The notes under the pieces are model-generated. The model made no database searches. It saw only the letters and a program-made list of their open reading frames with translations, and was not told the origin of the DNA. A stretch of 64,000 nucleotides of DNA from Escherichia coli (GTDB lineage: Bacteria > Pseudomonadota > Gammaproteobacteria > Enterobacterales > Enterobacteriaceae). Each line of letters starts with the position of its first letter. Position 1 is the stretch's first letter. Where the stretch lies: the NCBI RefSeq assembly GCF_003018115.1, contig NZ_CP027457.1; one strand, given 5' to 3'. The position numbers and the translations under genes were made by a program. Shown here one piece after another: positions 54,092 through 54,710 of this stretch.

Positions 54092-54162
54092 AGTGTAAAA
54101 GGGGTGCCATGAGAAAATGAATCTGCTAGTCAGATGCGCGGGGAAAATCCCCGCGCTTGCCC

Positions 54163-54312
54163 TTACCTGGACGTGCAGGCCATGAGCGCAGCAACCTCCT
54201 TATCACCGTCCCGGAACCGCAGTTCGTAGAGCGTTTGTCGGGTCAGGAGTGTGAATGCCAGAATCGTAATGCAGATAATGAGCAGACACACCACCAGAGG
54301 GTTGCGCTTCAT
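54163..54312 (-). CDS. hokB: Type I toxin HokB (Hok/Gef family membrane peptide)
   Basis: Reverse complement encodes MKRNPLVVCLLIICITILAFTLLTRQTLYELRFRDGDKEVAALMACTSR (49 aa) after an AGGAG SD. Confidence 0.85.
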   Translation of the reverse strand: MKRNPLVVCLLIICITILAFTLLTRQTLYELRFRDGDKEVAALMACTSR

Positions 54313-54370
54313 AGCCTTTCTCCTTGCCGGATGGCGGGTAAGAGGCTAACATCTGAATTGCTTGGTTCAT
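54203..54370 (-). CDS. mokB: MokB, overlapping reading frame that modulates hokB translation
   Basis: 55-codon ORF MNQAIQMLASYPPSGKEKGYEAQPSGG... overlapping hokB in another frame, the architecture typical of hok/sok loci. Confidence 0.6.
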   Translation of the reverse strand: MNQAIQMLASYPPSGKEKGYEAQPSGGVSAHYLHYDSGIHTPDPTNALRTAVPGR

Positions 54371-54410
54371 TCGTTGGCCTCGGTTGATAGAAATATCGGT
54401 CGGGGCCTTC
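54340..54410 (+). ncRNA. sokB: SokB antisense RNA (position approximate, inferred from locus architecture)
   Basis: Expected on the strand opposite the mokB translation-initiation region; exact ends not determinable by eye. Confidence 0.25.
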
Positions 54411-54710
54411 GTCTTTCTGATTCCCGGTTAGCCTGAAAACAGAAAGTCTCAGGCACCCGCAGGCATCCTATGAGGTTTCCTTAGGGACGAAAATAATCAC
54501 TTCACGAAATTGCGTGCTGTTTTCCAGAATTTTTCGTCATTCGGGTTAGCCAGTTTAGCCATTCGTTACTCTCTTCATTCCAATAGCATTAATTTTCTCT
54601 GCAATAATTGTTGTAAAAATGTGACGCAAAGAGGTTTTTGGTCATAAGTAATTACCGTCAAGTGCCGATGACTTTCTATCAGGAGTAAACCTGGACGAGA
54701 GACAACGGTA

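Follow-up and report, generated by a model that had tools for sequence, protein, structure and literature searches.

A structurally intact chromosomal hokB/mokB/sokB toxin–antitoxin locus in Escherichia coli with a probable mode of action like that of plasmid R1 hok/sok

One of the closest described systems to the locus considered here is hok/mok/sok (parB) of plasmid R1, which, together with related IncF plasmids, combines a 5' tac element, ucb, a mok Shine–Dalgarno (SD) sequence, dcb and a mok frame that overlaps the gene of a Hok-family toxin. R1 also has a GC stem-loop a few nucleotides past the stop codon, an fbi element 18–24 nt beyond it and an antisense RNA, Sok, lying across the mok start. 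According to the R1 model, the full-length mRNA is held by tac/fbi and ucb/mok-SD pairing, and 3' trimming leads to tac/ucb and mok-SD/dcb pairing, a form that is open both to translation and to binding by Sok (PMC9841398). The R1 substitutions G345A and C358A abolish toxicity as well as the truncated hok mRNA, a species that was attributed to 3'–5' exonucleases (PMC9841398). Related loci are also found on the chromosome of E. coli K-12, where hokA, hokC and hokE encode toxin paralogues of the Hok family and are accompanied by mok and sok. IS insertions separate the regulatory ends of all three, with IS150 located within mokA at the hokA locus and IS186 located about 20 nt past the stop codons of hokC and hokE. 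The chromosomal hok locus that serves as the study model in K-12 is hokB, which has been connected with membrane depolarisation induced by (p)ppGpp, with drug tolerance and with A-to-I editing of mRNA in bacteria. HokB is also said to be linked to Obg, a connection reportedly made by Verstraeten and colleagues in 2015.

Here we analyse the hokB region of a 64,000-nt stretch of E. coli DNA (contig NZ_CP027457.1; the whole stretch is hereafter called the window). The region is very probably the chromosomal hokB/mokB/sokB type I toxin–antitoxin locus in structurally intact form, most likely resembling R1 hok/sok in its working. The locus is already known, ordinary and in its usual place, and nothing in it alters existing knowledge of the system. 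Over a 661-nt segment (54050–54710), identity is 100% with E. coli F9792 and 99.1% with K-12, and 5,416 of the 5,426 complete E. coli genomes match at least part of this segment. The gene order, cybB, RydC, ydcA, yncP, hokB/mokB and trg, is the same as in K-12 (NC_000913.3), whose annotation has hokB (b4428), mokB (b1420) and sokB (b4429) at the corresponding positions. Its place between ydcA and trg, a sequence almost that of K-12 hokB, and the Tyr29 TACG codon context and Cys46 described below mark the gene as the hokB orthologue rather than another hok paralogue, and the name hokB/mokB that an initial annotation had given to the locus, working from the letters alone, is upheld by sequence, synteny and K-12 identity. 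That annotation had also called the locus complete at 54136–54420, which is incorrect because the promoter, tac and fbi all lie outside this interval of 285 nt; the full functional unit spans about 54095–54495, or roughly 400 nt (Table 1). Unlike hokA, hokC and hokE of K-12, the window locus carries no insertion, and the strain has an uninterrupted copy of hokB. In the automatic RefSeq annotation of close relatives, hokB alone is recorded, and mokB, sokB and the RNA elements are omitted. The practical value of the present description is in annotation, and for engineering or deletion it is the hairpin, fbi and tac that would set whether toxin can be made.

Table 1. Features of the hokB/mokB/sokB locus, with positions counted from the first letter of the window; RNA elements and transcript ends are predictions
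Feature	Position	Strand	Basis or remark
hokB toxin gene, 49 aa, MKRNPLVVCLLIICITILAFTLLTRQTLYELRFRDGDKEVAALMACTSR	54312–54163	-	Pfam, NCBIfam and RefSeq annotation of genomes
hokB SD, AGGAG	54324–54320	-	7 nt ahead of hokB ATG
mokB frame, 55 codons	54370–54203	-	overlaps hokB out of frame; K-12 counterpart b1420
mokB SD, GAGG	54381–54378	-	7 nt ahead of mokB ATG
TACG, TadA A-to-I editing motif	54228–54225	-	at Tyr29–Glu30; target A is 54227, K-12 position 1491986
Full-length hokB mRNA, about 358–361 nt	54098–54458	-	inferred ends
hokB/mokB promoter, -10 hexamer TAGGAT	54470–54465	-	at -12 to -7 from the inferred start G54458
hokB/mokB -35 region TTTTCG, weak	54493–54488	-	
tac, mRNA 5' end, GGGTGCCTGAGA	54458–54447	-	predicted to pair with fbi (full-length) or ucb (truncated)
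ucb / anti-SD, AGGCCCC	54408–54402	-	predicted partner is mok SD (full-length) or tac (truncated)
dcb, GCCUC	54346–54342	-	predicted to pair with the region of the mok SD (truncated)
GC-rich stem-loop, GCGCGGGGAAAATCCCCGCGC, 9 bp and 3-nt loop	54136–54156	-	exact sequence match; 6 nt after hokB stop
Small 5-bp hairpin, AUCUG-ACUAG-CAGAU	54121–54135	-	in the stretch that would be lost by processing
fbi, TCTCATGGCACCC	54114–54102	-	22 nt beyond the hairpin; 12 bp to mRNA 5' end, one bulge
Putative SokB promoter, -35 TTGCCG, 17-nt spacer, -10 TAACAT	54324–54329 and 54347–54352	+	sequence
Putative SokB, 57 nt	54360–54416	+	coordinates transferred from sokB b4429, NC_000913.3

Both reading frames are found as the initial annotation had described them, namely a 49-aa HokB on the minus strand behind an AGGAG SD, and a 55-codon mokB that starts upstream and overlaps hokB in another frame. 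The 49-aa ORF scores 82.5 bits against Pfam HOK_GEF (PF01848; cut-off 22) and 99.2 bits against the NCBIfam Hok family toxin model (NF007279; cut-off 73). The mokB start lies 58 nt upstream of the hokB ATG and therefore in a different frame, and mokB ends inside hokB. The GAGG motif has also been described for the R1 mok SD (PMC9841398). Inactivating changes in hokB or mokB, which the initial annotation had named as the observation that would speak against its reading and for which it had proposed a comparison with K-12, were not seen on alignment: there are five differences in 461 nt, and the comparison with K-12 gave neither a stop codon nor a frameshift in either frame. The TadA editing site in hokB and its effect have been described (PMC12214031; bioRxiv 10.1101/2025.08.07.668861), and the TACG motif at residue 29 is kept in the window, as is the Cys46 codon TGC at 54177–54175. 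HokB, which is about 55% identical to R1 Hok, has Tyr where R1 Hok has Cys, and therefore needs TadA editing for that Cys. The local fold around the editing site is no different from that of shuffled sequences (z = -1.1).

The ends of the hokB mRNA can be placed with the help of Rfam and R1. Model RF01794, which is named 'sok' yet models the hok-sense leader, matches 54458–54307 on the minus strand over model positions 1–157, not truncated, with 111.5 bits (gathering score 59), and the mRNA 5' end is therefore placed at G54458. This would give a leader about 28 nt shorter than that of R1 (146 versus 174 nt to the hok ATG). The 3' end was placed just past fbi by R1 analogy. A terminator scan found no canonical intrinsic terminator after fbi on the minus strand, and no equivalent of the terminator-like hairpin that follows fbi in R1 was seen. 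Eleven other hok loci have a -10-like hexamer equally far from the position at which the Rfam match begins, which serves as the presumed mRNA 5' end. A scan of 53900–54750 for consensus promoters returned no sigma-70 site, with both the hokB and the SokB promoter below threshold (8/12 or worse), and the two promoters are putatively assigned from position and conservation.

The antisense RNA had been expected on the plus strand over the mokB initiation region, and this placement is borne out by K-12 sokB, which maps across the mokB ATG (54370–54368). The K-12 annotation labels sokB 'putative'. The promoter-like hexamers of SokB end 7 nt before the position of the annotated K-12 sokB start (54360). 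As predicted, the RNA would open with 12 unpaired nt as a 5' tail (the main stem follows after 16 nt), continue with a terminator-like hairpin of 14 bp (54376–54407) and end in a U-rich tail, with a fold of -22.2 kcal/mol (z = -4.5). It is complementary to positions 43–99 of the hokB mRNA, which include the mokB SD and AUG.

The predicted fold of the full-length hokB mRNA (54458–54098) has an MFE of -147.1 kcal/mol (z = -5.2). Nucleotides 1–12, GGGUGCCUGAGA, pair with UCUCAUGGCACCC at 54114–54102 in the MFE and centroid structures alike, and this 12-bp tac/fbi helix is the outcome of the 5'–3' pairing prediction that the initial annotation had recommended. The tac/fbi duplex reaches -21.8 kcal/mol, versus -10.9 +/- 2.3 kcal/mol for shuffled 3' regions, with 0 of 300 as good. 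The search for the partner of tac was carried out by duplex folding limited to the sequence past the hairpin; an ungapped search for 8-mer complements, with G–U allowed, had returned false partners inside the GC hairpin and was replaced. In the full-length predicted fold, AGGCCCC holds the mokB SD GAGG. In the predicted fold of an RNA cut at the hairpin base (54136), the 5' end moves to AGGCCCC and the mokB SD enters a stem with GCCUC. The predicted full-length and truncated folds of hokB thus reproduce the published R1 switch.

We compared 21 hok loci, comprising the window locus, four R1-type plasmid loci and 16 viral-contig loci with Rfam leader matches; three hokD-like viral-contig loci (L017, L062 and L086), for which Rfam gave no match to the leader, were excluded. 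The R1-type plasmid loci were reached with the R1 hok sequence as query, whose matches in real plasmids were at 100% identity. When applied to these loci, the layout rule predicts about 397 nt for the full-length and about 361 nt for the truncated mRNA, in agreement with the lengths reported for the R1 hok mRNAs, 398 nt (full-length) and 361 nt (truncated). A tblastn search of HokB against plasmids returned five records only and no paralogues, the peptide being too short and of low complexity; four of the five records were of Mb size and seem to be chromosomes deposited under the plasmid label. In 20 of the 21 loci, a stretch 18–24 nt past the hairpin that is complementary to the 5' end formed the best duplex, the exception being L021, in which a nearer G–U-rich stretch scored slightly better. 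Across 15 distinct loci, 88.7% of the tac/fbi cells are paired, versus 36–53% with the partner slid. Six pairs are changed on both sides, such as C7–G in hokB versus U7–A elsewhere, and a U–G intermediate at position 7 occurs in the HokB-like locus L013. The paired motifs themselves differ between the two systems, with GGGUGCC/GGCACCC in hokB and GGCGCUU/AAGCGCC in R1. What is shown for the window locus are its sequence elements, the pairings predicted for them, and how they are conserved and covary. It shares with R1 the 5' tac, ucb, mok SD, dcb, overlapping mok, Hok-family toxin, 3' stem-loop, distal fbi and the position of a putative antisense RNA. The 55 codons of mokB count among the differences from R1, and hokB, unlike the R1 system, is chromosomal and without a plasmid-stabilising role.

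Just 3' of hokB, the initial annotation had seen a perfect 21-nt palindrome and had assigned it to the fold-back/processing element of hok mRNAs. Its sequence and place are exact, whereas the term palindrome holds only in the sense of an inverted repeat, perfect over 9 bp, that encloses a 3-nt loop; the reverse complement of GCGCGGGGAAAATCCCCGCGC has TTT in place of AAA. Folded as minus-strand RNA, this hairpin (54136–54156) has -19.5 kcal/mol (z = -3.6). The window gives 19 perfect hairpins with a stem of at least 9 bp and a loop of 3–8 nt, a count that includes nested ones, versus 1.8 in first-order Markov simulations, and the hairpin is therefore not a product of chance, though it is not unique in the window. 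Each of the 21 loci has a GC-rich hairpin 3–9 nt past the stop codon of hok, with stem sequences that vary; MAFFT lost the hairpin register, and hairpin conservation is accordingly given per locus, with no covariation count. By analogy, we infer that the hairpin is the counterpart of the stem-loop at the end of the truncated R1 hok mRNA that 3' processing leaves, and that it would act as a block to 3'–5' exonucleases and end a processed hokB mRNA of about 323 nt. R1 positions 345 and 358, at which substitutions abolish the truncated mRNA, map within the R1 counterpart of this hairpin. The assignment to the fold-back element is not supported: fbi lies 22 nt beyond the hairpin, and fbi and its partner tac are both outside 54136–54420.

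Two other roles for the hairpin were weighed. That the palindrome itself is the fbi and pairs with the mRNA 5' end, as the initial annotation had it, would agree with its position within the hokB 3' UTR and near fbi. However, the hairpin is self-complementary and is folded on itself in both predicted structures, full-length and truncated, and the complement of the 5' end is TCTCATGGCACCC at 54114–54102, a place where 20 of the 21 homologous loci also have a stretch complementary to their 5' end; we therefore find this role scarcely credible. The hairpin could instead be chiefly a terminator or protective hairpin for the convergent ydcA/yncP transcripts, or an intrinsic terminator of hokB, and not a hok-specific processing stop. 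It is indeed located between convergent genes and within the annotated small ORF yncP (54117–54185), yncP–hokB is among the listed convergent transcriptional overlaps in E. coli (PMC12288877), and terminators typically carry GC-rich hairpins of this kind. Yet a T-run follows the hairpin on neither strand, the terminator scan made no call there, and all 21 hok loci have the equivalent GC hairpin past the stop codon irrespective of what surrounds them, be it plasmid, prophage contig or chromosome. Moreover, if hokB transcripts stopped at the hairpin, they would be without fbi and hence without the conserved, covarying 5'–3' pairing. A terminator role is accordingly improbable, and the counterpart of the R1 processing stop remains our preferred reading of the hairpin.

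Carried over from R1 to the transcript ends, processing, SokB expression and toxicity of the window locus, the proposed working would be as follows. The weak promoter with -10 hexamer TAGGAT would give rise to a mok-hok mRNA of about 360 nt from G54458, in which tac would be paired with fbi and ucb would sequester the mokB SD, such that the mRNA would be neither translated nor bound by SokB. Slow 3'–5' exonucleolytic trimming would remove about 35–39 nt, including fbi, and halt at the GC stem-loop (54156–54136), after which the 5' end would re-pair with ucb and the mokB SD would shift to the dcb stem. SokB, when present, would pair across the mokB start and pass the duplex to RNase III; when SokB is lacking, mokB would be translated, and hokB would be translated by coupling. 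HokB would then enter the inner membrane and form pores, leading to depolarisation and dormancy, and TadA editing of Tyr29 to Cys at the TACG motif would yield a stronger toxin. The locus could nevertheless be intact in sequence and still be no R1-style killer. It would then be a tightly silenced or attenuated module that is relevant, if at all, as a rare stress-driven ((p)ppGpp/Obg) switch to dormancy or persistence, or it would be decaying. In bioRxiv 10.1101/2025.08.07.668861, which relays Pedersen and Gerdes (1999), native K-12 hokB is reported to show neither post-segregational killing nor activation by rifampicin, and R1-like killing dynamics may therefore not apply. Expression of HokB is also stated to occur in about 0.01% of cells, with (p)ppGpp as the inducer (PMC12214031). 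The locus is, in addition, often damaged in the species: Nissle 1917 is without the 5' half of hokB and most of trg, EC28 has IS150 in the hokB leader, THO-003 has an unpaired change in fbi, and the 5' half of hokB is missing from 335 of 5,426 genomes. Against such a reading, every regulatory element is present in the window locus and correctly paired in the predicted folds. Among E. coli lineages whose sequences in the region diverge by about 3.5%, most retain the same HokB protein and the same stems of tac, fbi and hairpin, which argues for purifying selection. A silenced or attenuated module is a serious possibility, though we stop short of calling it probable; it bears on biological role, not on mechanism, and is compatible with the R1-like working that we favour.

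The K-12 locus (NC_000913.3 1491922–1492175) has identical tac, ucb, SD sequences, GC hairpin and fbi and equal gene lengths. Compared with K-12, the window HokB carries H3R and T19A, and the window MokB carries L3Q, I7M and D38G. Two of the differences also alter SokB, with U at position 4 where K-12 has A, and its -10 box, with TAACAT where K-12 has TAAGAT. At mRNA position 109, the window has a G that restores a C–G pair in the mok SD/dcb stem, which is predicted at -12.3 kcal/mol in the window and -9.0 kcal/mol in K-12, and both predicted conformations of the window allele are at least as stable as those of K-12. The 81-nt segment that holds both HokB changes (54240–54320) is present in 5,091 and absent from 335 of the 5,426 complete genomes, and it is identical in only 12 of the 5,426, several of which are O169:H41 strains. 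Ala19 is also found in the HokB-like homologues L013 and L014. There is a slim prospect that this rare allele, with HokB R3/A19, MokB Q3/M7/G38, the SokB 5'-tail base, the SokB -10 box and the stronger SD/dcb stem, might alter the readiness of the system to fire or the toxicity of HokB and so give the lineage a different persistence phenotype. Separately, and with an equally slim prospect, yncP over the hok 3' hairpin could be a second gene nested in hok 3' UTRs. The lone difference from K-12 in the small hairpin, C to U at 54133, turns a C–G pair into U–G, and the stem is retained. On the strand opposite to hok, the conserved 3' hairpin falls within yncP, and ysaE is placed likewise beside hokA.

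Despite its name, 'sok antitoxin', the Rfam family RF01794 has its match on the hok-sense strand of the window (54307–54458, −), with a model that extends as far as the hok AUG. A match to this family marks the leader of the toxin mRNA rather than the antisense RNA, and it is reported on the strand opposite to SokB.

Various forms of damage affect hokB loci in other E. coli. In EC28, an IS150 element lies within the hokB leader and the SokB terminator, at a site equivalent to window 54399–54401 and with flanks that overlap by 3 bp, which recalls the IS150 insertion in mokA of K-12. 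The genomes H22 and H23 are broken at ~54385 (window numbering), and Nissle 1917 has lost mokB, sokB, the 5′ half of hokB and the greater part of trg through a deletion. In THO-003, hokB is retained and trg is truncated; fbi, the element predicted to pair with tac at the mRNA 5′ end, carries an A-to-C change at the equivalent of window 54105 without a compensating change in tac; the tac/fbi duplex is at −17.0 kcal/mol in THO-003 versus −21.8 kcal/mol in the window.

The annotated small ORF yncP, which has no match in Pfam or NCBIfam, runs antisense over the 3′ end of hokB (see table), and the GC hairpin that follows the hokB stop is contained within it. A similar arrangement is found in K-12 hokA, where the small ORF ysaE spans the 3′ end of the toxin gene. 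Both pairs, yncP/hokB and ysaE/hokA, have been listed as convergent transcriptional overlaps (PMC12288877).

Features around hokB and elsewhere in the window
Feature	Position	Strand	Description
yncP	54117–54185	+	Annotated small ORF, 22 aa, MNLLVRCAGKIPALALTWTCRP
Inverted repeat	54060–54087		9 bp, TTAGTGCAT, 10-nt spacer, ATGCACTAA; in final codons of ydcA
RydC	53684–53747	−	Small RNA; Rfam RF00505, 92.5 bits
ORF at gapC position	51953–52954	−	Uninterrupted, 333 codons
McaS	2179–2274		Present
FnrS	5652–5769		Present
MicC	10580–10700		Present

Along the hokB strand, the inverted repeat in ydcA (see table) lies ~15 nt past fbi, and it is not followed by a T-run on either strand. On a viral contig with a Hok homologue (L015), the Rfam family sRNA-Xcc1 matches at 1041–1124 (+, 80.6 bits), ~190 nt downstream from hok.

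Elsewhere in the window, RydC is located between cybB and ydcA, as in K-12. F9792, the strain identical to the window around hokB, has an intact gapC, whereas the K-12 gene is a pseudogene with a frameshift. A distance of only ~5 kb separates FnrS from MicC; in K-12 the Rac prophage sits between these two genes, so it appears to be absent from the window.
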